Positions 136 through 29,551 are shown, counted from the first letter of the stretch. The stretch: 41,540 bases of DNA from Candidatus Moraniibacteriota bacterium (GCA_038208355.1 JBBQYU010000002.1:1-41540); one strand, 5' to 3'. Notes: generated from the sequence alone by a model not told the origin. Made by a program: numbers and translations.

Positions 136-161
136 AGGTTCTGATGTCATCTGGGCGAAAT

Positions 162-183
162 AAAAGGGGTCAGGTACCTTTTT
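162..183. repeat. Left inverted repeat (REP-like hairpin-forming 22-mer)
   Basis: Exact reverse complement of 921-942. Internally AAAAGG/CCTTTT can pair around a 9-nt loop. Confidence 0.85.
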
Positions 184-253
184 AGGCGCAGTTGGTATAT
201 ATTGAAACCATGCCTAGGCCCGAAGAGGCATTAAAATTAAACATGAACATATA

Positions 254-934
254 ATGGCTCGCATTCCTCGTGCCGCTGCCCCCGATACTGTTTATCATGT
301 TCTCAATCGCGCTAATGGTCGGGAGCAGATTTTTCAGAAAGAAAAAGACTATGCTGCTTTCGAGAAAATTCTTCTAGAGGGAGGAGAGAAATTCAATATG
401 CGAATTCTTGCGTACTGTATTATGCCGAACCATTAGCATCTTGTGCTGTACCCAAGAACGGGTGAGGATCTCTCACAATTTATGCGCTGGATTACTCATA
501 CGCATACCCAGCGTTTCCACGCACACTACCACAGCATCGGATATGGACACGTCTATCAGGGAAGATTCAAGTCATTTCCAGTGCAAAGTGATGACTACTT
601 TCTCCAAGTATGTCGATATGTAGAGCGCAATTCTGTCCGAGCTGGGCTTGCTGAGAAGATAGAAGATTGGCAATGGTCAAGTGCCTGGATACGAAAAAGT
701 GGAACACTGGAACAGAAAAAAATTCTTGCAGACTGGCCGGTTAAGATGCCAGATTATTATGAGAAATGGGCGAACACGCTCTCGGAAGATGAAACAGAGA
801 AGTTGGAAAAAATACGATACGCTCTCAAGCGTGGGTCACTCTTCGGAGAGTATGATTGGATAATAAAAATTTCAAAACAACTTGGTCTAGAATCAACTTT
901 ACGTGAGCGAGGAAGACCTAAAAAAGGTACCTGA
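254..934 (+). pseudogene. REP-associated tyrosine transposase (RAYT / IS200-like Y1 HUH transposase) interrupted by one in-frame TAG
   Basis: ORFs 254-436 and 443-934 share one frame and are split only by TAG at 434-436. The joined product reads ...AYCIMPNH*HLVLYP..., which is the HUH motif with the stop in the middle position. It also carries ...CRYVERNSVRAGL...DWQWSS, the catalytic-Tyr region typical of IS200/RAYT proteins. Confidence 0.8.
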
Positions 935-942
935 CCCCTTTT
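921..942. repeat. Right inverted repeat (REP-like 22-mer)
   Basis: AAAAAGGTACCTGACCCCTTTT is the exact reverse complement of 162-183. It overlaps the transposase stop codon (TGA 932-934). Confidence 0.85.
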
Positions 943-967
943 CTTCCCGAAAGACCTGAAGCAGTTA

Positions 968-1660
968 TTGCTTGCTGAGATTGTACTAAGGACAAATGAA
1001 AATTTGGCGCGTAATGATTCGACAAGAGGCTATGCACTTAACCCTTTATTTGCTCCTATATTTCAGAATTACCGCACTGATAAATGGGGTGATTCTGTAG
1101 TAGAGTTTACTAAAAATCATGATTCCATACGAGAGTTGCTCGATAGGTCACGCGAAATTGTAAAAATCCCTATAAAAATTGATGGTAAAACATTTGAATT
1201 CTCAAATGGTGAGCATAATTTGTTACAAAAGGCGATTATCGAAGAGTTTCTACCCCTTTATGGTTATGGCTCGGAGGTTTTGTACGTTGGAGATACTGCT
1301 AATAAATATCTACATCTAAACCAAGATAAGCTTGATGCTCTGGGCTTTTTCAAGATTGATCATGGAGAATTGCCCGATGTAGTGGCTTACTCTAAAGATA
1401 AGAATTGGCTTTATCTCATAGAAGCCGTTCATTCATCTGGACCTATTTCTGAAATCCGTTTACTGGAGCTAAAAAAACTCACAGAGAAATGTACGATAGA
1501 TATAATCTACGTTACCGCATTTCTTAATAGGGACAAGTTTAGAACTTGGGTCAAAGATATTGCATGGGAGACAGAAGTTTGGGTAGCTGATAACCCGACA
1601 CACCTCGTGCACTTTAACGGTGACAAGTTTATGGGGCCGTACACTGCGCATGTAGACTAA
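968..1660 (+). pseudogene. BsuBI/PstI-family type II restriction endonuclease, probably N-terminally truncated
   Basis: ...ELPDVVAYSKDKNWLYLIEAVHSSGPISEIR...YVTAF...DIAWETEVWVADNPTHLVHFNGDKFMGP matches my recollection of the BsuBI/PstI catalytic C-terminal domain. Only a TTG start is available. The frame opens at 935, directly after the transposase stop and right IR. The ORF is 230 aa versus roughly 310-330 aa remembered for the family. Confidence 0.6.
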
Positions 1661-1666
1661 CGACCT

Positions 1667-2146
1667 TTATAGAAGTTTTAGTTCAAGTAGTCGAATGGTT
1701 GCTGCTTGCTTGCTAACTCCAAATGTTTTTGAGAGTTTTTCAATGTCCATCCCATTCTTTTTTACATGATCTTTTACCCAATCTGAAGGCATAAGGAGTA
1801 CGGAAGCAAAAAGGTTTGCTTCTCGTTCTATGGGTCGTGACTTATCAAAAACATCGTCTATTATTTCTTCTTGGTGTTCTTCTCCTAACCCATGACCTAG
1901 CAGAAAATGACCCAGCTCATGAGCAATAGTGAAGCGTTGGCGGAGAGGGTGATGACCTTGGTTCACGCCAATTACGCCGGCCTCTTTCTTTATAAGACCC
2001 GACAGTTTGTTATGAAAAGGAAACAAAACAACCTCTAGTTGAATTGCTTCTGCAACTTTTTTTACATCAACGGGAGGAATCTTGCAGCCAGCTCTTTCTA
2101 TTGCTTGTGTGGCAAGCTCCTCAATATATTTTGTATGTGATTTCAT
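1667..2146 (-). CDS. ImmA/IrrE-family zinc metallopeptidase (CapP-like)
   Basis: HEXXH motif in ...FTIAHELGHFLLGH..., followed by ...EREANLFASVLLMPSDWV..., typical of DUF955/ImmA. Its ATG overlaps the stop of the upstream XRE gene (ATGA at 2143-2146). Confidence 0.85.
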   Translation of the reverse strand: MKSHTKYIEELATQAIERAGCKIPPVDVKKVAEAIQLEVVLFPFHNKLSGLIKKEAGVIGVNQGHHPLRQRFTIAHELGHFLLGHGLGEEHQEEIIDDVFDKSRPIEREANLFASVLLMPSDWVKDHVKKNGMDIEKLSKTFGVSKQAATIRLLELKLL

Positions 2147-2454
2147 TTTTTACTACGATTCAAAAGAAAATTATCAAAATCATCGAGCGACTTCTTTACG
2201 TCGCTGCTATTCCCAGTACCTTTATCAGTGCGGAACATAGTTACGCTAGGCTCTAAAAAGAATGAGACATCCTTACCGAAAAAACTTGCCACCCTATGGA
2301 TATCTTGCAATTTAATCTCTCTGATACCCTGTTCAAAGTTTGAAATCCCCATAGATGAATAGCCGAGGTGTTCTCCTAGCTGCTTTTGCGTAAGACCTTT
2401 TTCCTCACGAGCCTCTTTAATGCGATCGCCAATTTTTTTAGAAATTTCTTGCAT
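2143..2454 (-). CDS. XRE-family helix-turn-helix transcriptional regulator (CapH/ImmR-like)
   Basis: HTH_3-like ...IKEAREEKGLTQKQLGEHLGYSSMGISNFEQGIREIKLQDIHRVASFFGKDVSFF. I prefer the ATG at 2454; the ORF track starts at TTG 2475, which would lie inside the predicted promoter. Confidence 0.85.
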   Translation of the reverse strand: MQEISKKIGDRIKEAREEKGLTQKQLGEHLGYSSMGISNFEQGIREIKLQDIHRVASFFGKDVSFFLEPSVTMFRTDKGTGNSSDVKKSLDDFDNFLLNRSKK

Positions 2455-2475
2455 ATTTTGCTTTGAATAAGCCAA

Positions 2476-2545
2476 ATTATAAAATTATACTTGACTACAC
2501 AGAACCTTGTGTATTACACTGTGTGATAGCGAACCATCTGTGTAC
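2476..2545. promoter_or_regulatory. Divergent promoter/operator region between the XRE-ImmA operon and the 126/365-aa cassette
   Basis: Minus strand: two TATAAT hexamers (complement of 2476-2481 and 2484-2489). Plus strand: TTGACT at 2491-2496, with TATTAC (2512-2517) or TACACT (2515-2520) as the -10. Inverted repeat TACACA-N6-TGTGTA at 2496-2513. ACACTGTGT palindrome at 2516-2524. Direct repeat GAACC..TGTGTA at 2502-2513 and 2531-2544. Confidence 0.45.
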
Positions 2546-2604
2546 TTATAGTACCAGACTGGAGCCAGAATTTCAAGCTCCATTGAGTAGGGAGGAATAG
2601 CGGA

Positions 2605-2985
2605 ATGTTTAATCATTATAGCAAAAATCCTATGGGATCAAGTAGCAACAGAAAGAAGAACGATAATTTTCGGGTGAACTCTCCTAAGAAACAAGGAGGA
2701 GATAAAGGGGCTGGCGGGAGTGGTGGTAATAGTAGTAAAGAAGATATCAATGTTACCTGCCCAATGGCCTTCGATGTGAGTATAAAACCCTCTCGGTTGC
2801 TTCCAGACGGCACCGCAGTAACAATACGGGGAACAGAGTTGGTCGCGATGGGAGAGTCAGTGGGGAAATTACAACCTCGTCAGATTCAAATGATAACAAA
2901 ATGCTCAGAAAAGGGGATTACCTATTCCGGAAAAATTCTGAACAGGAAAGATAAACCGTATGTCCGCTTCACTCAAAATACTTAA
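2605..2985 (+). CDS. Hypothetical protein, 126 aa: basic Gly/Ser-rich N-terminal tail plus compact C-terminal domain
   Basis: GGAGG at 2591-2595 lies 9 nt upstream of the ATG. The N-terminal ~45 aa are low complexity (...SSSNRKKNDNFRVNSPKKQGGDKGAGGSGGNSS...). No family recognised. Confidence 0.6.
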   Translation: MFNHYSKNPMGSSSNRKKNDNFRVNSPKKQGGDKGAGGSGGNSSKEDINVTCPMAFDVSIKPSRLLPDGTAVTIRGTELVAMGESVGKLQPRQIQMITKCSEKGITYSGKILNRKDKPYVRFTQNT

Positions 2986-4057
2986 TAGCAATCATCAGTT
3001 GTCATTATTTTCACTCGAGTGTCAAAGCGCCCGATATACTCCTTTTGTGCATCCAGACGAAAATTCAGCATTAAGAGTTCAGTGTGCGGGCAGAGAGAGA
3101 CTGAATGTTGTAACGTGTAGCGATGAGGGCGTGGAAGACGATCTCAAAGACGTTAACGGGCTGGATCTGGAAGATATTGATATCTTGGGGCAGACCATTT
3201 CAGTGGATTCTTTCATTCCTATAATCCCCCGAGGTCTCTTTGACCTATCTTCTGACGATATTTCCGATCCTGTAGTTGGTGTGATGCTGAATGACATACT
3301 AACGAAGAGGGGGAGCCTTCGTCATGGCCAGTATTATTTGCCCAAAGACACCGGTATCGACATAAACATACTCCACAGCCCTGTCTTTCACGGAAAGAAA
3401 ATAGTCCTTTTCTCTTGTGGGCAGGATATTATCATTGAAACGCTCTGGTGGAATCGTCAGGATCTCAATCTTTTCCAAGCGATTGCAAGTATGGGGTTTT
3501 TTGCAGTTACTGGTATGAATTTCTCACTATTCGTTGGCGAATGCCCTCTCAGTCACGCCCTTAATTTGAAAAAAAGCCTTTGTTACTGCCAGGGGTTGGC
3601 TAGTCTGGGTGTACAGACTATCCCTCATATATATGCTCTTAACGATCATCAAAGAAAGAGGTGGCAGTCTTGGCTTATTGCTCGGTCTCACATAAACTTA
3701 ATTACAATAAACACACAATTGCAAAGGAGTAGCAGGAGTGACATGAGTGAGGTTCTAAAAACAGTCAGTTTTCTACTTGAGAATACAAAAGTGAATATTC
3801 TTCTTCAGGGTAGAGGGAACGGACTACCGAAAGATCTCAAAAGAAAATATGCGAAGAGGCTTCACGTTGCAGCCTCTGGGCCACTAAAGAGAGCCTCTAT
3901 ACGCAAGGATAAGACACCAGATGAACACATTGAAGACTTCAAGAGAGGTCTAGGGCTAAATATGAAAACTACCCCTTTCGCGCCTGACGTTTTCGCTATC
4001 CAACTAATCAACTCCAGCCATTCCCAATTTGAAAGTCAAAAAAAGCCGCTATTTTAG
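2960..4057 (+). CDS. Hypothetical protein, 365 aa (function unknown; very tentative DUF4417-like central region)
   Basis: Long ORF overlapping the previous one by 26 nt. No catalytic motif recognised. The central ...IVLFSCGQDIIIETLWWNRQ...GMNFSLFVGECPLSHALNLKKS...GVQTIPHIY... loosely recalls the motif spacing of DUF4417, unverified. Confidence 0.65.
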   Translation: MSASLKILNSNHQLSLFSLECQSARYTPFVHPDENSALRVQCAGRERLNVVTCSDEGVEDDLKDVNGLDLEDIDILGQTISVDSFIPIIPRGLFDLSSDDISDPVVGVMLNDILTKRGSLRHGQYYLPKDTGIDINILHSPVFHGKKIVLFSCGQDIIIETLWWNRQDLNLFQAIASMGFFAVTGMNFSLFVGECPLSHALNLKKSLCYCQGLASLGVQTIPHIYALNDHQRKRWQSWLIARSHINLITINTQLQRSSRSDMSEVLKTVSFLLENTKVNILLQGRGNGLPKDLKRKYAKRLHVAASGPLKRASIRKDKTPDEHIEDFKRGLGLNMKTTPFAPDVFAIQLINSSHSQFESQKKPLF

Positions 4058-4612: not shown

Positions 4613-4665
4613 GAGCTAACGAAAACGAGGCTGTAACAAGCCTTGTTTTTTGTTACCCGGGATGG
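4613..4665 (+). repeat. Repeat copy A: terminator-like hairpin plus TTGTTACCCGGGATGG box
   Basis: GAGCTAACGAAAACGAGGCTGTAACAAGCCTTGTTTTTTGTTACCCGGGATGG. The stem is AAAACGAGGCT / AGCCTTGTTTT with one G-T pair. Its first ~43 nt recur at 5384-5427 and its last ~19 nt at 7398-7416. Confidence 0.7.
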
Positions 4666-4766
4666 GATTGGAACTTGAGTATGGACAAATGAGGAGAAAT
4701 TATATAAACTGCAAAGTCCTTGAATTCAAGGGCAAGTTCTTCAATCATCATCCAAAGGAGGGCGAC

Positions 4767-5234
4767 ATGGATCAAAGATTCATAGAAGGTGAAGAGGCGA
4801 TGGAACTGACGGTGAGGATATGGACTGATCCGAAACTGATTCATTACATCGGAATGATCATTCCTCCCCGGCCCGGCATCCAACGATGTCTTACAATGTT
4901 GGAGTATCTACATTTCCCGCCATGTACTCCGCTCAACGATGAGTACCAGTTCGTCACTTATGAGTTCAGCGGAATCTTGTTTGGGGTGGTAAGTATTCCC
5001 AAGCAGAAGAAGCATCTCATGGAGACGATAGCGGATGAGTCAGGGCTTCGCATCGTCAAGGGTGTTCCAACTCTTCTTTCCAGCGATCGACAGGATTCAT
5101 TTCCGATTCAGTCCAGTGACGCGTACAGTCTGGAGAATAAACCAGGACATTCTGTCTACAACAGTACGCAGCAGCAGATACGAGCCATGCTCATTGCAGA
5201 ATACCGGGAATTGGAGGACAGGTTCGGAATATGA
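4767..5234 (+). CDS. Hypothetical protein, 155 aa
   Basis: AAGGAGG at 4755-4761 lies 5 nt upstream of the ATG at 4767. The ORF track's TTG 4650 extension runs through repeat A and looks unlikely. No family recognised. Confidence 0.55.
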   Translation: MDQRFIEGEEAMELTVRIWTDPKLIHYIGMIIPPRPGIQRCLTMLEYLHFPPCTPLNDEYQFVTYEFSGILFGVVSIPKQKKHLMETIADESGLRIVKGVPTLLSSDRQDSFPIQSSDAYSLENKPGHSVYNSTQQQIRAMLIAEYRELEDRFGI

Positions 5235-5383: not shown

Positions 5384-5427
5384 GAGCTAAGAAAACGAGG
5401 CTGTGATAAAGTTTGTTTTTTGTTAAA
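5384..5427 (+). repeat. Repeat copy B (degenerate copy of A)
   Basis: GAGCTAAGAAAACGAGGCTGTGATAAAGTTTGTTTTTTGTTAAAAG aligns with 4613-4655 with a few substitutions and one indel. Its hairpin is weakened. Confidence 0.65.
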
Positions 5428-6109: not shown

Positions 6110-6831
6110 TGAATTCAGTTGCTCAAAAAATAGCAGACAAGTTACGGGCTGAGAAAATTATTCCCATTTCTGAACGAAGAGTGAGTGCAGAGCGTATAGT
6201 GTATTGGCTAGCCGTAGCAACGCTCACCCTTTTGGCAGGTTTAATGATGTCTTTTGTTTTCTTATTCTTTATCCAGCTTTTTGGACCGAGAGATTTTTTT
6301 ATTCCAGGACACCCCCCATTCATGCGTTTCCTCCTCCTTTTCCCTTATATCTGGATTCTTTTTACTATTATCCTTTTTACCGCAATAGTTTTTGTGGTAA
6401 AGAAAACGCCTCACGGGTATAGATATCAGATAAGTTTTATCATCCTTCTTTTAATAGGTGGCGTTTCTATCTTCGCTACTTTGTTCCATCTCTCTCGGAT
6501 TGACGAAAGGGCGGAGAGAGTAATTTTAGGCAAAGCTCCCCAGGTATACACCACCTTTCTAGAAAAGCGTTGGAATCATCCAGACGATGGGGTATTGGCA
6601 GGAGAAGTAGTAAAGATTAGAGGGAAAGACTTTGATATTCAGCCGCCACAAGGGGATGTTTGGAAAATATTGACTGACGAGAACACTATTTTTGTAGATG
6701 AAGAATCTGTTGTTGAGGGGGATAGAGCGAGAATTATTGGCACAAGACAAGAGAGAGGCGTTTTTTTAGCTAAGAAAGTAAAATTGATAGACAGAGGAGC
6801 AAGGAATCAGAAAGAGTTTATTGGGAGATGA
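6106..6831 (+). CDS. Polytopic membrane protein, putative anti-sigma factor, with a C-terminal small beta-rich domain
   Basis: Its start overlaps the sigma gene stop (ATGA at 6106-6109). It has several hydrophobic segments. The C-terminal ...GVLAGEVVKIRGKDFDIQPPQGDVWKILTDENTIFVDEESVVEGDRARIIGTRQERGVFLAKKVKLI resembles the C-termini of ORFs 20410 and 24092. Confidence 0.55.
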   Translation: MMNSVAQKIADKLRAEKIIPISERRVSAERIVYWLAVATLTLLAGLMMSFVFLFFIQLFGPRDFFIPGHPPFMRFLLLFPYIWILFTIILFTAIVFVVKKTPHGYRYQISFIILLLIGGVSIFATLFHLSRIDERAERVILGKAPQVYTTFLEKRWNHPDDGVLAGEVVKIRGKDFDIQPPQGDVWKILTDENTIFVDEESVVEGDRARIIGTRQERGVFLAKKVKLIDRGARNQKEFIGR

Positions 6832-6918
6832 ATGCAAACTAATTTATTAGTAGACGTATCAATAAGTGTAGGTACAGAGTGCTAGCCCTGCTATCTACTT
6901 ATTAACTAAAAAATTCTT

Positions 6919-25186: not shown

Positions 25187-25927
25187 ATGGCCAACTTCAC
25201 CTTGACCCTTCAGGAACATAAAAGCGTTGCCGATGGTACGGAAATGTTCGTTTTCGACAAACCGGCTGATTTTACCTTTGAGGCAGGACAGTATGTGGCC
25301 ATGCTGTTGCCGCAAACAGTCGTCCCGGATGATCGCCACGGCGTGCGCTCGCTGTCTATCGCCTCGGCTCCTTTTGAAGAGACGTTGATTTTTGCTATGC
25401 GCCAGAGCCAGAGCGGGTTCAAGCAGACTATGTTTGCTCTGGAACCGGGCGCCACGGTCGCTGTGACCAAGGCTATTGGGCATTTCACTCTTGCTCACGC
25501 TCAGGATGCTTTACCCATTGTTTTTTTGGTGGGCGGCATCGGCATTACACCGGTACGGAGTATTTTGAAGCAGGCGGAGCATGAGGGAAGTGAGCGGAAA
25601 CTTTTTGTTTTTTATTCCAATCGTTTTCACAAAGATGCGGCTTTTCATGAGGACTTGGAAAAAAGCACTCTCAAAAATCTGACCTATGTAAATACGTTAT
25701 CGCAAGAAACTGCCGCTTGTTCGTGTAAAAATGAAGAGCGCGGGTATATCTGCGAGAGTATGCTTGCCAAGTATCTAGTCGGGACGGGAGAGGCCTGGTA
25801 TTATCTGGTCGGTGCCCCGGGATTTATCGAGGCTATGGAAAAGATGTTATCAGAAATGGGTGTACCTCAAGAGCGTCAGGTATGTGATCCTTTTGCTGGG
25901 CTCACTCAGGCGAAAAGTAGCAAGTAG
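25187..25927 (+). CDS. Ferredoxin-NADP reductase-like FAD/NAD(P)-binding oxidoreductase
   Basis: FAD-binding R-x-Y-S-type motif VRSLSIASAP. NAD(P)-binding segment ...IVFLVGGIGITPVRSIL.... Two-domain length. Confidence 0.8.
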   Translation: MANFTLTLQEHKSVADGTEMFVFDKPADFTFEAGQYVAMLLPQTVVPDDRHGVRSLSIASAPFEETLIFAMRQSQSGFKQTMFALEPGATVAVTKAIGHFTLAHAQDALPIVFLVGGIGITPVRSILKQAEHEGSERKLFVFYSNRFHKDAAFHEDLEKSTLKNLTYVNTLSQETAACSCKNEERGYICESMLAKYLVGTGEAWYYLVGAPGFIEAMEKMLSEMGVPQERQVCDPFAGLTQAKSSK

Positions 25928-25997
25928 CGAGAGTAATACAATGGTAGTATGACAGCCTTCCAAGCTGTATACGCGGGTTCGATTCCCGTCTCTCGCT
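25927..25997 (+). tRNA. tRNA-Gly (anticodon UCC)
   Basis: Hand-folded cloverleaf. Acceptor GCGAGAG/CTCTCGC, D stem ATAC/GTAT, anticodon stem ACAGC/GCTGT with loop CTTCCAA, T arm GCGGG-TTCGATT-CCCGT. Discriminator U, no encoded CCA. Confidence 0.85.
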
Positions 25998-26007
25998 CAT
26001 ACAAGAC

Positions 26008-26036
26008 AAGCCGGGCACCAGCCCGGTTTTTGTTTT
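26008..26036 (+). terminator. Rho-independent terminator after tRNA-Gly
   Basis: CCGGGC-ACCA-GCCCGG stem-loop, followed by TTTTTGTTTT. Confidence 0.65.
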
Positions 26037-26151
26037 GGGAGACGGGAATAGAACGGGAGGGGATGGTCGGGGGAACCTCTCTTGACGGTAAGATTGGTAA
26101 AACCAGGTATCTCACCCAAACACAAGTTGAATATAATGGAATAATGAAGAC

Positions 26152-26180
26152 TTGACACATACTGGTTTATTATGTAACAT
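26152..26180 (+). promoter_or_regulatory. Candidate promoter/operator of the PadR gene
   Basis: TTGACA (26152-26157), 17-nt spacer, TAACAT (26175-26180). The palindrome ATGTAACAT overlaps the -10. The leader to the ATG at 26189 would be very short. Confidence 0.35.
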
Positions 26181-26188
26181 TGTTATAT

Positions 26189-26563
26189 ATGGGAAGAAAA
26201 AAGATTTCCGAAACAGAGTGTGGTCATCCCGAAATAAGATGGATGCAATTTTTGCTTTTGAGGGTTATTTTCGAAAAACCATCCTATGGATATGAGATTA
26301 TTAAAAACACTGAAAAAATTACAGATAATCAGAGTATAATTAAATCCGGTACGGCATATACGCTTTTGCGAAGGATGGAAAAAGAAGAGTTATTAAAATC
26401 CGCTTGGAAAGAAAATGAACATGGGCCCGCTCAGCGAATTTATAGTGTAACTCCAAAGGGAAAGGAATATCTTAATGCTTGGCTTAAAACGGTTATTCAA
26501 AGAAAAAAGATGATAAATAATATGGTTATTTTCTATAATAAACATTTTAAAGATGAAATTTAA
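26189..26563 (+). CDS. PadR-family transcriptional regulator
   Basis: ...PSYGYEIIKNTEKIT...SGTAYTLLRRMEKEELLKSAWKENEHGPAQRIYSVTPKGKEYL... is a PadR winged helix. Confidence 0.8.
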   Translation: MGRKKISETECGHPEIRWMQFLLLRVIFEKPSYGYEIIKNTEKITDNQSIIKSGTAYTLLRRMEKEELLKSAWKENEHGPAQRIYSVTPKGKEYLNAWLKTVIQRKKMINNMVIFYNKHFKDEI

Positions 26564-26644
26564 ATCAAACAAAGCTCGTTCGGAGATGAAAGAGTACGTT
26601 CATTTCGCTCGAATTTGCTAGATAAATAAATTGACTATAAGCAT

Positions 26645-27643
26645 ATGAGTAAAAAAGGAATTTCAATCATTGTAGTAATTATTGTTTTAATCGGCGGGAT
26701 AATCGGTTGGCGCTCTGTTCGCAATACTAATCAATCGCCGTATGAAACAAGCGTGGTTCAAAGGGGCAATCTTATTCAGGAGGTATCGGCTACCGGCAAA
26801 GTAGTGTCGCCAACCATGGTGAATTTACAATTTAAAAATAGCGGAAAAATTATTTTGTTAAATACTGAAGTGGGGAAAAAAGTTGTGGCGGGAGAAATTT
26901 TAGCCAAACAGGATTCTAGTTTGCTTCGTAGTCAATTGAAGCAAGCGCAGGCAGTGCTCAAAACTCAAAAATATAAATTAAGATCACTGGAAGAAAATAA
27001 GGTGCCAAACCATGATGACAAATATGATGTCAAGGCTCAAGAAGCCATAGTCGAGCAAGCACTGGCTGACATTGAAGTGCAAATGACGAAAATAAATGAA
27101 ACGGTTCTTGTGGCGCCTATTGACGGGTTTGTTCTTGCCAGCAATAGTGAGGTGGGTGAAATTGCAAAACCGGAAACAGTCATTGCGTTGGTCGCTTCAA
27201 CCGGTAGCCTGCAAATTGATGTAGATATTCCGGAAACGACAATTGCGAATGTAAAAGTTGGACAGACGGTAAAAATAAAGCTTGATGCATTTGATGATGC
27301 GACCGAATGGGCAGGAAAAGTGACAGACATTGATTCAGCTGGAACAGTAAAAGGCGGGGCTATCTATTATAAAACAACAGTAGTTTTTGAAGAGGATGAT
27401 GAAAGAATCAAGTCTAGTATGACCGCTAATGTCTGGATTAAAACAGCTGTTTCTGAAAACACTCTTTTTGTGCCGGTGAGCGCAATACAAAAAAAAGACG
27501 GTAAAAAAATTGTTCAAGTTTTAAAAGAAGGAGTGGTAACGGAAAAGGAGGTAATAACTGGCCTAAAAAATGATGCTGGCATGATTGAAATTATCTCCGG
27601 GCTTTCACAGGGTGAGGAGATAGTTCTTGGTAACAAAAAATAA
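26645..27643 (+). CDS. Efflux transporter periplasmic adaptor (HlyD family)
   Basis: N-terminal TM segment, ...VSATGKVVSP..., ...NTEVGKKVVAGEILAKQD..., a coiled coil, ...VLVAPIDGFVLASNSEVGE... and a C-terminal beta domain. Confidence 0.85.
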   Translation: MSKKGISIIVVIIVLIGGIIGWRSVRNTNQSPYETSVVQRGNLIQEVSATGKVVSPTMVNLQFKNSGKIILLNTEVGKKVVAGEILAKQDSSLLRSQLKQAQAVLKTQKYKLRSLEENKVPNHDDKYDVKAQEAIVEQALADIEVQMTKINETVLVAPIDGFVLASNSEVGEIAKPETVIALVASTGSLQIDVDIPETTIANVKVGQTVKIKLDAFDDATEWAGKVTDIDSAGTVKGGAIYYKTTVVFEEDDERIKSSMTANVWIKTAVSENTLFVPVSAIQKKDGKKIVQVLKEGVVTEKEVITGLKNDAGMIEIISGLSQGEEIVLGNKK

Positions 27644-27645
27644 AT

Positions 27646-28875
27646 ATGAACGCGACTGATATAAAAACGGCGTTCTTTATCGCTTATAAGACCATTGTTA
27701 AGGGACATAAATCCACGGTGGCGCTTATTATTTTTATTTTGTCGCTATCATTTTTTAATTTGATGTTTGTTTCCGGGTTTCTTTCTGGTTTTTCGGATGG
27801 TATTATGCGTTCCATGATTGACACTTCAACGGCCCATATTATTGTGATGCCACAGGAAGAACCGACGCGTAAGGATTTTATTTCCGAACAAAGAAGTGTA
27901 CGTGCGCAAATACAAACAATTCCCGGAGTTGTTGCAACTTCTAGCCACTATCAATTAGGTGGTTCTCTCTCGTATGACCGAGGAAATAATGGAAAATTCA
28001 AATCCGTTTCGGCACCAATAATCGGCGTGACACAATCAGAAGAAAAGGTTGTTTTGATGGTGAATAAAAACATGGTCTCTGGAGAGTTTCCAGACACATT
28101 GAATGAGGATGAAATAGTCTTGGGGGCAAATCTTTCAGGGGGGTTTGGCACGAAGCAAACTTCGGATCTTGGTGGTGCCGAAGTTGGTGATAAGGTGCAA
28201 GTAAATTATGCGAATGGCATAGCACGAACATATACGGTTAAAGGTATATTTAAAATTACTATGGGGGGGATTGGCGGGACCGCTTTTATTTCTGCTAAGG
28301 AGGCAGAGGCAGTACTTTCGACATACAATAATGCCTCTGAAATTATGGTGAGAGTTGATTTGGACAGAAGCACTCTGGATGAATATGTCCAGCGGATTGA
28401 GGCAATATTCCCCGAACTTAAAGTTGAAAAATACACTGCTCGATTGTCTACGGTCGGTATACTTGTCGCCGCCTTTGATATTATTGCGTTTATCGTGAGT
28501 GTGATCAGTATCATCGTAGCGGCCATAACAATCTTTGTGATGATTTATGTAAATGCTGTTAGTAAGCGCCGACAGATTGGTATTTTGAAAGCCATTGGGA
28601 TAAAAGAAAATATTATAGAGGTGTCATATATTATTCAATCGCTTTTCTATGCTATCTGGGGCGTCATTTTTGGATTGATGATAATCTTTTGGATAGTTAT
28701 CCCGTTTCTTGCAGTACGGCCGATTCCTATGCCATTTGGCAATGCGAGTCTCGTTTATACTTCGGTAGGGATTTTTATCAATATTGGCAGCCTTATAGTT
28801 TCAGGCATTTTAGCGGGCTTTATTCCTGCTAAAATAGTCGCGCGAGAAGATATTCTCAAATCAATTTGGGGTTAA
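27646..28875 (+). CDS. ABC transporter permease (FtsX/MacB/LolCE type)
   Basis: N-terminal TM segment, a large extracytoplasmic domain, then a C-terminal FtsX segment ...FVMIYVNAVSKRRQIGILKAIGIKE.... Confidence 0.85.
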   Translation: MNATDIKTAFFIAYKTIVKGHKSTVALIIFILSLSFFNLMFVSGFLSGFSDGIMRSMIDTSTAHIIVMPQEEPTRKDFISEQRSVRAQIQTIPGVVATSSHYQLGGSLSYDRGNNGKFKSVSAPIIGVTQSEEKVVLMVNKNMVSGEFPDTLNEDEIVLGANLSGGFGTKQTSDLGGAEVGDKVQVNYANGIARTYTVKGIFKITMGGIGGTAFISAKEAEAVLSTYNNASEIMVRVDLDRSTLDEYVQRIEAIFPELKVEKYTARLSTVGILVAAFDIIAFIVSVISIIVAAITIFVMIYVNAVSKRRQIGILKAIGIKENIIEVSYIIQSLFYAIWGVIFGLMIIFWIVIPFLAVRPIPMPFGNASLVYTSVGIFINIGSLIVSGILAGFIPAKIVAREDILKSIWG

Positions 28876-28885
28876 GAGCAATTTT

Positions 28886-29551
28886 ATGATCAAAGTAAAA
28901 AATCTTGTAAAAACATATCCTGGGAAAGTTCCGACGCTGGCACTCAAGGGTGTTTCGCTTGAAATTGCCGAAGGGGAATTTGTAGCCCTGATGGGCAGAA
29001 GTGGCTCAGGAAAATCGACGCTTCTACACCAGCTCGGTCTACTCGATATGCCGACAACCGGAAGTGTTGTTATTAATGAGCTGGACGTTTTGGCCTTATC
29101 GGATGCGGAAAGAACCAAATTTAGACTTCAGCATCTTGGATATGTCTTTCAAGAGTATGCGCTCATTGCTGAGTTTACGGCATTTGAAAATGTTTATTTT
29201 CCAGCTATGGCTCTGGGAGATTATAAAGCGAAGGAACGCACAGCATATTTTTTGGATATAGTTGGCTTGGGGGATCGAATAAATCATTATCCAAGCGAGA
29301 TGTCGGGAGGCGAGCAACAGCGAGTTGCGATTGCGAGAGCTTTGATAAATAATCCAAAAGTACTATTTGCCGATGAGCCTACCGCTAATCTTGATACCGT
29401 TTCATCGGAAATTGTTTTTAAACTTTTTCAGAAACTTAATAAAGAACTGAAACAAACTATTCTTGTAGTCACACACGAACCTGAAGATAAAAAATATGTG
29501 GACCGTGTCATTTGGCTGAAAGACGGACAAATTATTGAAGATGCTGCGTAA
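28886..29551 (+). CDS. ABC transporter ATP-binding protein (MacB/LolD type)
   Basis: Walker A GRSGSGKST, signature MSGGEQQRVAIARAL, Walker B LFADEPTANLD and H-loop VTHE. Confidence 0.9.
   Translation: MIKVKNLVKTYPGKVPTLALKGVSLEIAEGEFVALMGRSGSGKSTLLHQLGLLDMPTTGSVVINELDVLALSDAERTKFRLQHLGYVFQEYALIAEFTAFENVYFPAMALGDYKAKERTAYFLDIVGLGDRINHYPSEMSGGEQQRVAIARALINNPKVLFADEPTANLDTVSSEIVFKLFQKLNKELKQTILVVTHEPEDKKYVDRVIWLKDGQIIEDAA

Follow-up and report, generated by a model that had tools for sequence, protein, structure and literature searches.

The window examined here, a stretch of 41,540 nucleotides (nt) of DNA from a Candidatus Moraniibacteriota bacterium, is numbered from its first letter and contains a compact module of four genes. 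A minus-strand pair, composed of an XRE-family helix-turn-helix (HTH) repressor and an M78 zinc metallopeptidase, lies opposite a plus-strand cassette of two overlapping genes, referred to as SMALL (the small plus-strand protein) and BIG (the 365-amino-acid (aa) protein). An earlier, sequence-only reading of this DNA had placed the four open reading frames (ORFs), coupled the regulators through an ATGA overlap, assigned a HEXXH motif to the peptidase and noted a 26-nt overlap between the plus-strand genes, all of which is borne out by ORF calls (Table 1). Both the regulator pair and the cassette are genuine; the unit is mobile, and its regulators are exchangeable. Relative loci that were fetched for comparison carry L-numbers.

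BIG has no match in Pfam (E≤1), PHROGs, PADLOC (E≤1) or NCBIfam, and its 47 close database homologues are all without annotation. A HMMER scan with BIG recovers 737 representative clusters at E≤0.001. The protein is confidently predicted to be a (beta/alpha)8 TIM-barrel enzyme, as the AlphaFold2 model (predicted local distance difference test, pLDDT, 87.2; predicted template-modelling score, pTM, 0.85) places eight beta/alpha units after an N-terminal extension of ~80 residues. The residues invariant in the homologue alignment are C53, D156, E160, W163, N187, F188, S189, E194, C195, N202, K205, P222, H223, Y225, N251, Q253 and G284, and C21, C42 and C53 of the extension are invariant or nearly so. 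The invariant Asp, Glu, His, Asn, Gln, Lys and Tyr residues lie at the C-terminal ends of the predicted barrel strands or immediately beyond them, as expected for the active site of a TIM barrel. Gly-rich loops follow strands 7 and 8.

A loose resemblance of BIG to DUF4417 had been offered tentatively, and the idea is right at the level of the superfamily, with an hhalign probability of 100% (E=1e-50) against a DUF4417-positive set. The window protein itself falls below detection by the Pfam DUF4417 model (PF14386). Among its distant relatives, 37 of 47 match PF14386 (best 1e-13), and tblastn connects BIG to annotated DUF4417 proteins on Streptomyces plasmids at E=4e-13. On these profile comparisons, BIG is a divergent long-form branch of the DUF4417 superfamily, for which we know of no function. 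A Streptomyces plasmid carries overlapping ParB_N and DUF4417 genes next to its relaxase and transfer genes. Streptococcus phage Javan318 (MK448905.1; L051:4365-5447) encodes a ParB_N+DUF4417 protein (E=8e-71) just upstream of its terminase module. The Javan318 protein is annotated as a ‘DNA modification methylase’, yet there is no methyltransferase domain among its Pfam and NCBIfam matches, and the annotation was probably transferred from ParB-methylase fusions.

Comparison of the predicted BIG fold with the PDB by Foldseek gives generic barrels only (PdxJ, TrpA, IGPS, OMP decarboxylase and TGT) at template-modelling (TM) scores of 0.35-0.55, and no meaningful PDB sequence-profile match is found. 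The best matches in the viral library are phage DpdA-type ‘queuine tRNA-ribosyltransferases’ (E=6e-5, TM 0.42-0.53). The TGT and phage DpdA-type matches, at TM 0.38-0.53, are no better than those to PdxJ or TrpA. Membership of the TGT/DpdA family was rejected at the level of sequence profiles, since hhalign gave probabilities of 0.2-0.3% for E. coli Tgt, for phage 9g DpdA and for a profile of nine DpdA sequences.

The start of SMALL probably differs from that first given. The plus-strand ORF 2605-2985 (126 aa) exists as described and a GGGAGG Shine-Dalgarno sequence serves its ATG at 2605; the likelier start is 2632 (117 aa), because all homologues begin at this internal Met (MGSS...) and the sequence immediately before it does not differ between the window and its closest relative, L001. 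The disordered N-terminus and compact C-terminal domain of ~80 aa that had been foreseen are reproduced by AlphaFold2, in which block-mean pLDDT is 40-50 at residues 1-40 and 85-91 at residues 41-117. The C-terminal domain is beta-rich and contains two invariant Cys residues. The N-terminal region has a basic tail, an invariant M-G-S-x-x-x-R-K-x-(N)-D...N-x-P motif and a Gly-rich linker that is predicted to be disordered. The Met-Gly start is invariant across SMALL homologues, very distant ones included (MGSS, MGSG, MGQG, MGKG, MGSK), and is followed by the R-K-x-N-D motif. An exposed N-terminal Gly may be functionally relevant. A eukaryote-type N-myristoylation signal at the MG start was rejected, as position 6 is not conserved and the hosts are bacterial.

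SMALL could not be assigned by a fold search of the PDB (best E 0.23); it has no meaningful PDB sequence-profile match and no family match in Pfam, PHROGs, PADLOC or NCBIfam. A word-based search with the window SMALL alone retrieves one relative, and an alignment profile was required to recover the family. In keeping with the sequence-only reading, neither plus-strand protein matches phage structural, replication or housekeeping families, and the two genes form a strictly kept pair across loci.

SMALL stands directly ahead of BIG in essentially every locus examined (~60). It is immediately upstream of and overlaps BIG in the window and in 28 of the first 29 fetched loci, and this arrangement is seen in 30 of 33 metagenome loci that extend 300 nt or more upstream, the rest being two fusions and one pseudogene. 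A natural in-frame SMALL-BIG fusion of 488 aa, with the MG N-terminus kept, occurs in two different metagenomes (L083:2104-3570 and L084:2185-3651); the SMALL hidden Markov model (HMM) covers its residues 1-122 (E=5e-16) and the BIG HMM residues 122-433 (E ~3e-102). The order within the fusion, SMALL N-terminal to the barrel, is also the order in ParB_N-DUF4417 fusions. Decayed copies are found at L025:7914-8630, where a 238-aa ORF joins the SMALL N-terminus to BIG residues ~131-314 through a deletion, and at L095:2905-4116, where frameshifts have fragmented both genes. In a distant DUF4417-positive outgroup (P0127, L052), M78 and XRE genes diverge from a 127-aa MG-initiated ORF that overlaps the barrel gene. 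Three more distant loci contain MG-initiated small ORFs, two of which are detectably SMALL-like. Because the pairing extends to fusions and to distant DUF4417-positive relatives, SMALL and BIG are an old, obligate pair, and their strict co-occurrence together with the natural fusion shows them to be one functional unit.

The XRE gene lies upstream of and opposite to the cassette, across a control region of 130-177 nt. A promoter scan places promoter-like sites on both strands of this region, which also holds four TACAC(A/T)/TGTGTA half-sites and an inverted repeat between the two units. A non-coding block of ~45 nt, covering the -35/-10 elements and TACAC/GTGTA half-sites, is kept in five XRE+M78 loci among which BIG identity is only 46-73%, and its sequence is promoter/operator-like. 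In L015 (Paceibacterota), ~480 nt (6279-6846) with an ORF of ~194 aa (6257-6841) are inserted between the promoter/operator block and SMALL. A conserved leader hairpin downstream of TACCAGA was considered and dropped, the hairpins being out of register by eye.

The M78 peptidase bears its HEXXH motif at residues 76-80 (AHELGH) and matches Pfam Peptidase_M78 over residues 43-153 (E=1.5e-23). Its match to PADLOC capP (E=1.2e-32) aligns to model positions 4-153 of 242 only, and its PHROG match is a metallo-protease. The XRE protein matches HTH_3 (E=6.5e-12) and PADLOC capH (E=9.9e-8). Its ORF extends back to a TTG at 2475. Translation from the ATG at 2454 yields 103 aa, in agreement with homologues of 101-102 aa; a C-terminal tail of ~35 aa follows the HTH. 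The overlap of the XRE stop with the M78 start as ATGA on the minus strand was verified. PADLOC candidate systems PDC-M69A/B, which are XRE+M78 pairs, also match the window regulators, and both M78 and XRE match the NCBIfam ‘spr1629 family repressor/antitoxin’, a fused HTH-M78 model, far below its curated cutoff.

The switch had been described as CapH/CapP-like. This holds for the combination of an HTH repressor with an M78 peptidase and for the divergent layout, but not for the architecture of CapP, as the 159-aa window peptidase is a single domain and lacks the central and GAF domains that characterise CapP and IrrE. With only the peptidase domain present, it resembles ImmA and not CapP. CapP consists of an M78 peptidase, a central linker domain (labelled HTH in the schematic) and a C-terminal GAF domain, with single-stranded DNA in the inter-domain groove (bioRxiv 10.1101/2022.04.27.489752; 10.64898/2026.05.16.725639). 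CapH/CapP-like pairs of HTH and metallopeptidase have been reported beside DUF2188 operons (bioRxiv 10.1101/2022.04.27.489752). DUF2188 accompanies the cassette in three loci only (the window, L001 and L029), all with XRE/M78-type regulators, which agrees with the published association. It is probably an accessory of the XRE/M78 version of the module.

The regulators change across the relatives of the cassette. XRE+M78 is the partner in the clade of the window, in L016 and in the outgroup L052, whereas L029 (Chitinophagaceae) has a fused HTH-M78 upstream on the same strand. An HTH-SocA_Panacea partner is found throughout one Saccharibacteria sub-clade (11 of 39 metagenome loci); that of L007 matches SocA_Panacea at E=6e-19 and NCBIfam ‘SocA antitoxin’ far below the curated cutoff. 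The window has no Panacea gene. The turnover of partners (XRE+M78, fused HTH-M78, HTH-Panacea or none) was mapped on the BIG tree, and where XRE+M78 is missing another HTH regulator usually takes exactly that position and orientation. Panacea has been reported to counteract dozens of unrelated toxins, and an N-terminal HTH is present in 343 PanA proteins (PMC8832971).

The proposal that SMALL and BIG are the cargo of the switch is accordingly sustained in part. The pair is a conserved neighbour of XRE-M78 across ~20 loci down to the distant outgroup, but the switch is replaced by HTH-Panacea or absent in about half of the loci, so that the unit is the cassette itself, with a regulator that can be exchanged. 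If the XRE-ImmA pair, with DUF2188, were instead autonomous, its adjacency to SMALL-BIG would reflect only the packing of unrelated small modules. PADLOC lists both XRE+M78 (PDC-M69A/B) and DUF2188 (PDC-S16) as candidate systems of their own, associations of HTH, metallopeptidase and DUF2188 have been reported independently (bioRxiv 10.1101/2022.04.27.489752), and SMALL-BIG occurs without XRE/M78 in many loci. This explanation is distinctly improbable, since the divergent arrangement recurs in ~20 loci with BIG identities from 73% down to that of the distant outgroup, the intergenic block is conserved, and another HTH regulator usually fills the same position when XRE+M78 is missing.

The clade is present in 16 of 185,579 species representatives: 12 metagenome-assembled genomes of the ultra-small Saccharibacteria/Saccharimonadales, one Paceibacterota and three Chitinophagaceae. 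A cultured carrier of the cassette is Pseudoflavitalea rhizosphaerae (Chitinophagaceae), KACC 18655. The distribution stands against the view that BIG is an ordinary metabolic TIM-barrel enzyme, for example of sugar-phosphate or nucleotide metabolism, assisted by a small chaperone-like partner and controlled by a local transcription factor. That view draws on the metabolic phosphate-binding barrels among the best PDB folds (PdxJ, TrpA, IGPS and OMP decarboxylase), on the Gly-rich loops after strands 7 and 8, and on the housekeeping character of about half of the neighbourhoods. As well as the patchy distribution, the lack of a conserved metabolic neighbour, the mobile signatures, the partners of toxin-antitoxin (TA) or defence type and the relatives on phages and plasmids all speak against it, and it is the least probable of the explanations considered.

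Signs of insertion are found around many copies. Eight loci have a tRNA gene at a distance of 59-370 nt from the module, beyond BIG in L002, L006, L007, L009, L020, L024 and L026 and beside M78 in L003. In at least eight loci (L002, L003, L006, L007, L024, L059, L088 and L092), a large serine recombinase is one to three genes away. A tRNA on one side, often with a large serine recombinase on the other, is the layout of a tRNA-associated integrative island. In three diverged genomes, the block running from recombinase through regulator, SMALL and BIG to tRNA-Asn is syntenic, with unrelated sequence to the left of the recombinase. In L017, L018 and L022, the HTH-Panacea+SMALL+BIG unit is framed exactly by imperfect direct repeats of 48-56 nt (85-91% identical). 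The right repeat copy coincides with the 3′ end of a flanking minus-strand ORF, and L020, which lacks that ORF, also lacks the repeat. To judge from these sequences, the repeats suggest that the unit was inserted at a specific site and the target duplicated. In the window, L001, L003 and L015, the module has no flanking direct repeats, and there is no recombinase within the window.

This setting raises the further explanation that the cassette is an accessory factor of a serine-recombinase island, either a recombination directionality factor (RDF) or a replication/processing enzyme, and is controlled as the excision genes of ICEBs1 are by ImmR/ImmA. It would account for the large serine recombinases near the module in eight loci and for the recombinase-to-tRNA-Asn block shared by three genomes, and the RDFs of serine integrases vary in structure. 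The window and most other loci nevertheless lack a recombinase nearby, and an invariant enzyme-like active site and flanking repeats of its own without a recombinase do not suit an RDF. The explanation is very unlikely.

In roughly half of the loci, the cassette has conflict genes as neighbours. These include a C5 methylase with a PstI-like endonuclease, an Eco57I-type enzyme with a PLD-SNF2 helicase, N6_N4 methylases (some fused to ParB), SAVED/SMODS genes of cyclic-oligonucleotide-based anti-phage signalling systems (CBASS) with a LexA-like regulator, an HD/HD_assoc dGTPase-like gene and an AbiEii-like AAA_21 ATPase. In L012 (5904-7346 and 11453-14160), the cassette is located inside a region resembling an integrative and conjugative element (ICE), with primase, Replic_Relax and TrwB/DUF87 genes. 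Its neighbours there are an HD/HD_assoc dGTPase-like gene and, behind a LexA/S24-type regulator, a CBASS-like SAVED-HNH + SMODS operon.

The cassette is best read as a horizontally mobile, repressor-gated conflict cassette, either TA-like or directed against phages or other mobile genetic elements (MGEs), with a two-subunit enzyme as its payload. The probability of this reading is put at about 0.45, somewhat below even odds. The strongest argument for a conflict role is that XRE+COG2856/M78 and HTH-Panacea, both known as companions of toxins, replace each other at the same position; small size, patchy distribution and insertion signatures point in the same direction. The exchange of the switch in sister lineages for HTH-Panacea, with its promiscuous antitoxin domain, suggests that the payload is harmful when unrestrained. 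The defence or abortive-infection role that the sequence-only reading proposed is inferred from such features, and functions for the mobile element itself are live alternatives.

The following mechanism would fit. The XRE repressor would bind the TACAC/GTGTA half-sites over the back-to-back promoters and repress SMALL-BIG, as the anatomy of the region and the conservation of the block suggest, and probably its own operon too. Stress, such as DNA damage or infection, would activate the co-translated ImmA-type M78 peptidase, and the repressor would be cleaved, by analogy with ImmR/ImmA, DdrO/IrrE and CapH/CapP. SMALL and BIG, produced from overlapping and translationally coupled genes, would presumably act as one physical complex. 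In this complex, BIG would act on DNA or a nucleotide, while the basic, disordered MG-tail of SMALL would tether or gate it; SMALL would hold the position that the ParB N-terminal (CTPase) domain has in the DUF4417 proteins of phages and plasmids. As a result, the cell would stop growing or replication of the invader would be blocked. That BIG might act on DNA or nucleotides is favoured because its relatives are fused or coupled to ParB N-terminal domains, SMALL takes the same position and its tail is basic and flexible.

Several observations weigh against a conflict cassette with a harmful payload. In several loci no regulator can be recognised; the cells there must put up with constitutive expression of the cassette, and this speaks against a strongly toxic payload. 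Whereas canonical PanA-PanT genes share one operon, the HTH-Panacea gene diverges from the cassette at a distance of 200-300 nt. SMALL and BIG have no PADLOC-DB v2 match at all (E≤1), and only the regulators and DUF2188 do. The best PDB fold matches of BIG are generic phosphate-binding barrels and TGT, which give no pointer to a substrate. The other half of the neighbourhoods, mainly those of HTH-Panacea loci, consists of housekeeping genes, and the association with defence islands is a qualitative one. Patescibacterial genomes are in any case rich in restriction-modification (RM) systems. Finally, in phages and plasmids the DUF4417 relatives occupy places where DNA-modification or anti-restriction genes are found, a siting that fits an enzyme of benefit to the MGE as well as it fits a toxin.

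This last point leads to the alternative that BIG is a DNA-modification or anti-restriction enzyme of a mobile element, with SMALL as its DNA tether, which modifies DNA of the element or of the cell, is induced together with its island through an ImmR/ImmA-type switch and protects DNA in transfer. The ParB_N+DUF4417 protein by the terminase of Javan318, the ParB_N/DUF4417 genes by the relaxase and transfer genes of the Streptomyces plasmid and the phage DpdA-type proteins that head the viral fold matches would all suit such an enzyme, as would the serine recombinases and tRNA genes adjoining the module and the ICE-like setting in L012. The BIG clade was not found in 50,697 phage genomes nor in IMG/VR, however, and many copies are isolated three-gene insertions without transfer genes. 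A partner of the Panacea antitoxin type is hard to square with a benign enzyme, and hhalign sees no relation to DpdA/Tgt. The alternative is possible but rather unlikely.

The payload matches no described defence, TA or modification system among those searched, and the two-protein effector would be new. To our knowledge, few immune systems apart from RM are recognised in Patescibacteria (the candidate phyla radiation, CPR). If the cassette is indeed a mobile conflict system, new and widely shared, it would extend what is known of how these epibionts deal with phages and mobile DNA. The loci also provide the first coherent genomic ‘grammar’ for long-form DUF4417 (737 clusters), with an obligate small partner, exchangeable regulators of stress or antitoxin type and ParB partners in the phage and plasmid relatives. 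With this grammar and a cultured carrier, the biochemistry of the family becomes directly testable. A bolder and speculative proposal, rather unlikely as it stands, is that SMALL-BIG is the first example of a new class of two-component enzymes that modify nucleic acids or excise bases. In these, a DUF4417 barrel would be brought to DNA by an interchangeable tether, here the MG-tail of SMALL and in phages and plasmids a ParB-CTPase clamp, and would be used by cells as a repressor-gated immune or addiction effector and by phages as counter-defence. If true, this would be the first function for DUF4417, with a chemistry parallel to but independent of that of DpdA/DpdB.

The surroundings of the module in the window are accessory in character, as had been proposed, with a RAYT/Y1_Tnp remnant, a BsuBI/PstI endonuclease lacking most of its N-terminal domain and a DUF2188 gene (Table 1). 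The raised A+T content that had been remarked upon is likewise present, with a GC content of ~0.40 over 1-7 kb against 0.45-0.53 across most of the remaining window. The endonuclease matches positions 87-137 only of the 140-position Pfam model of the N-terminal domain, which is an HTH domain. Without a methylase, it is a decayed RM system; the syntenic locus L001 retains an intact C5 methylase and a 327-aa endonuclease. The repeats that bracket the RAYT remnant (159-183 and 921-945) are 96% complementary, contain GGTACC and are probably the ‘hairpin elements’ of the earlier reading. A duplicated terminator-like hairpin of 35 nt (4621-4655 and 5391-5425, 86% identity) stands either side of an unannotated 194-aa ORF (4650-5234), in the manner of a further small cassette that has been inserted. 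At 26000-29000, GC is low again (0.36-0.41); this stretch starts right after tRNA-Gly(tcc) (25927-25998) and may be another tRNA-associated island. An Rfam scan of the window gave two tRNAs and nothing else.

Table 1. Features of the module, its control region and its surroundings. Positions are those of the window unless a locus is named.
Feature	Position	Strand	Basis
RAYT/IS200-like (Y1_Tnp) remnant, frameshifted	159..945	+	Y1_Tnp E=1.4e-4 (weak); bracketed by 25-nt inverted repeats
BsuBI/PstI-type restriction endonuclease, no methylase	968..1660	+	BsuBI_PstI_RE E=9.5e-60
ImmA-like single-domain M78 (COG2856) zinc metallopeptidase, 159 aa	1667..2146	-	Pfam, PADLOC, PHROG
XRE-family HTH repressor, 103 aa	2143..2454	-	HTH_3, capH, homologue lengths
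Divergent control region	2455..2631	.	promoter scan, inverted repeats, conserved block
Promoter-like site, -10 TATAAT	2489-2484	-	promoter scan
Promoter-like site, -35	2513-2508	-	promoter scan
TACAC(A/T)/TGTGTA half-sites	2496, 2508, 2515, 2539		
Inverted repeat between the two units	2496-2519/2521-2544		
Conserved non-coding block, promoter/operator-like	2514-2558		kept in five XRE+M78 loci
Promoter-like site, -35 GTGATA	2523-2528	+	promoter scan
Promoter-like site, -10 TATAGT	2547-2552	+	promoter scan
SMALL, 117 aa (ORF from 2605 = 126 aa)	2632..2985	+	alignments, AlphaFold2
BIG, 365 aa, predicted DUF4417-superfamily TIM barrel	2960..4057	+	homologues, AlphaFold2, Foldseek, DUF4417 link
DUF2188 protein, 76 aa	4200..4430	+	Pfam DUF2188 E=1.7e-22; PADLOC PDC-S16 E=1.9e-28
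tRNA genes (Ser, Asn, Lys, Pro) near the module	L002:7070-7158; L006:9225-9299; L007:9221-9295; L024:9373-9447; L026:9391-9467; L020:9321-9397; L003:6491-6577		
Direct repeats	L017:6514-6568/9074-9128; L022:6514-6569/9075-9130; L018:5193-5240/7774-7821		

Among known systems, ImmR/ImmA of ICEBs1 and phage phi105 is similar in its short single-domain HEXXH M78 peptidase, co-transcribed directly after an XRE repressor, and in the divergence of this pair from the genes that it presumably controls. Sister loci of the module also adjoin site-specific recombinases and tRNA genes. The difference is that the window has no integrase or excision genes, and the genes putatively controlled are an uncharacterised enzyme pair rather than genes for excision and transfer. 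CapH/CapP resembles the module in having an HTH repressor and an M78 peptidase upstream of and opposite to the cargo, and it provides the best PADLOC matches of the regulators. A DUF2188 gene in the operon is a further likeness, as reported for some CapH/CapP-like loci. In CapH, the peptidase removes a C-terminal oligomerisation domain; the window XRE protein has its tail of ~35 aa after the HTH. Unlike CapP, the window peptidase is single-domain and has no Cys at the position of the cysteine-switch loop.

The Xre-COG2856 and PanA modules of TA type share with this cassette regulators that are known as promiscuous partners of unrelated toxins, and like it are small, patchily distributed and mobile. 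They differ in that their regulators lie in the same operon, whereas here the regulators are divergent and the payload, putatively toxic, is two proteins. DpdA/DpdB has no sequence-profile similarity to the cassette, which also has no preQ0/queuosine biosynthesis genes nearby, and the likeness of fold is at the level of a generic barrel. The analogy is therefore one of working only, between a TIM-barrel enzyme with a DNA-associated helper (DpdB being a ParB-like ATPase) and BIG with SMALL. The ParB_N-DUF4417 (PF14386) proteins of phages and plasmids have a homologous barrel, likewise with an upstream or N-terminal partner ahead of it. In the present cassette, this partner is SMALL, a novel 117-aa protein, instead of ParB_N, and BIG has an extra Cys-bearing N-terminal region of ~80 aa and is cellular or island-borne rather than phage-borne.

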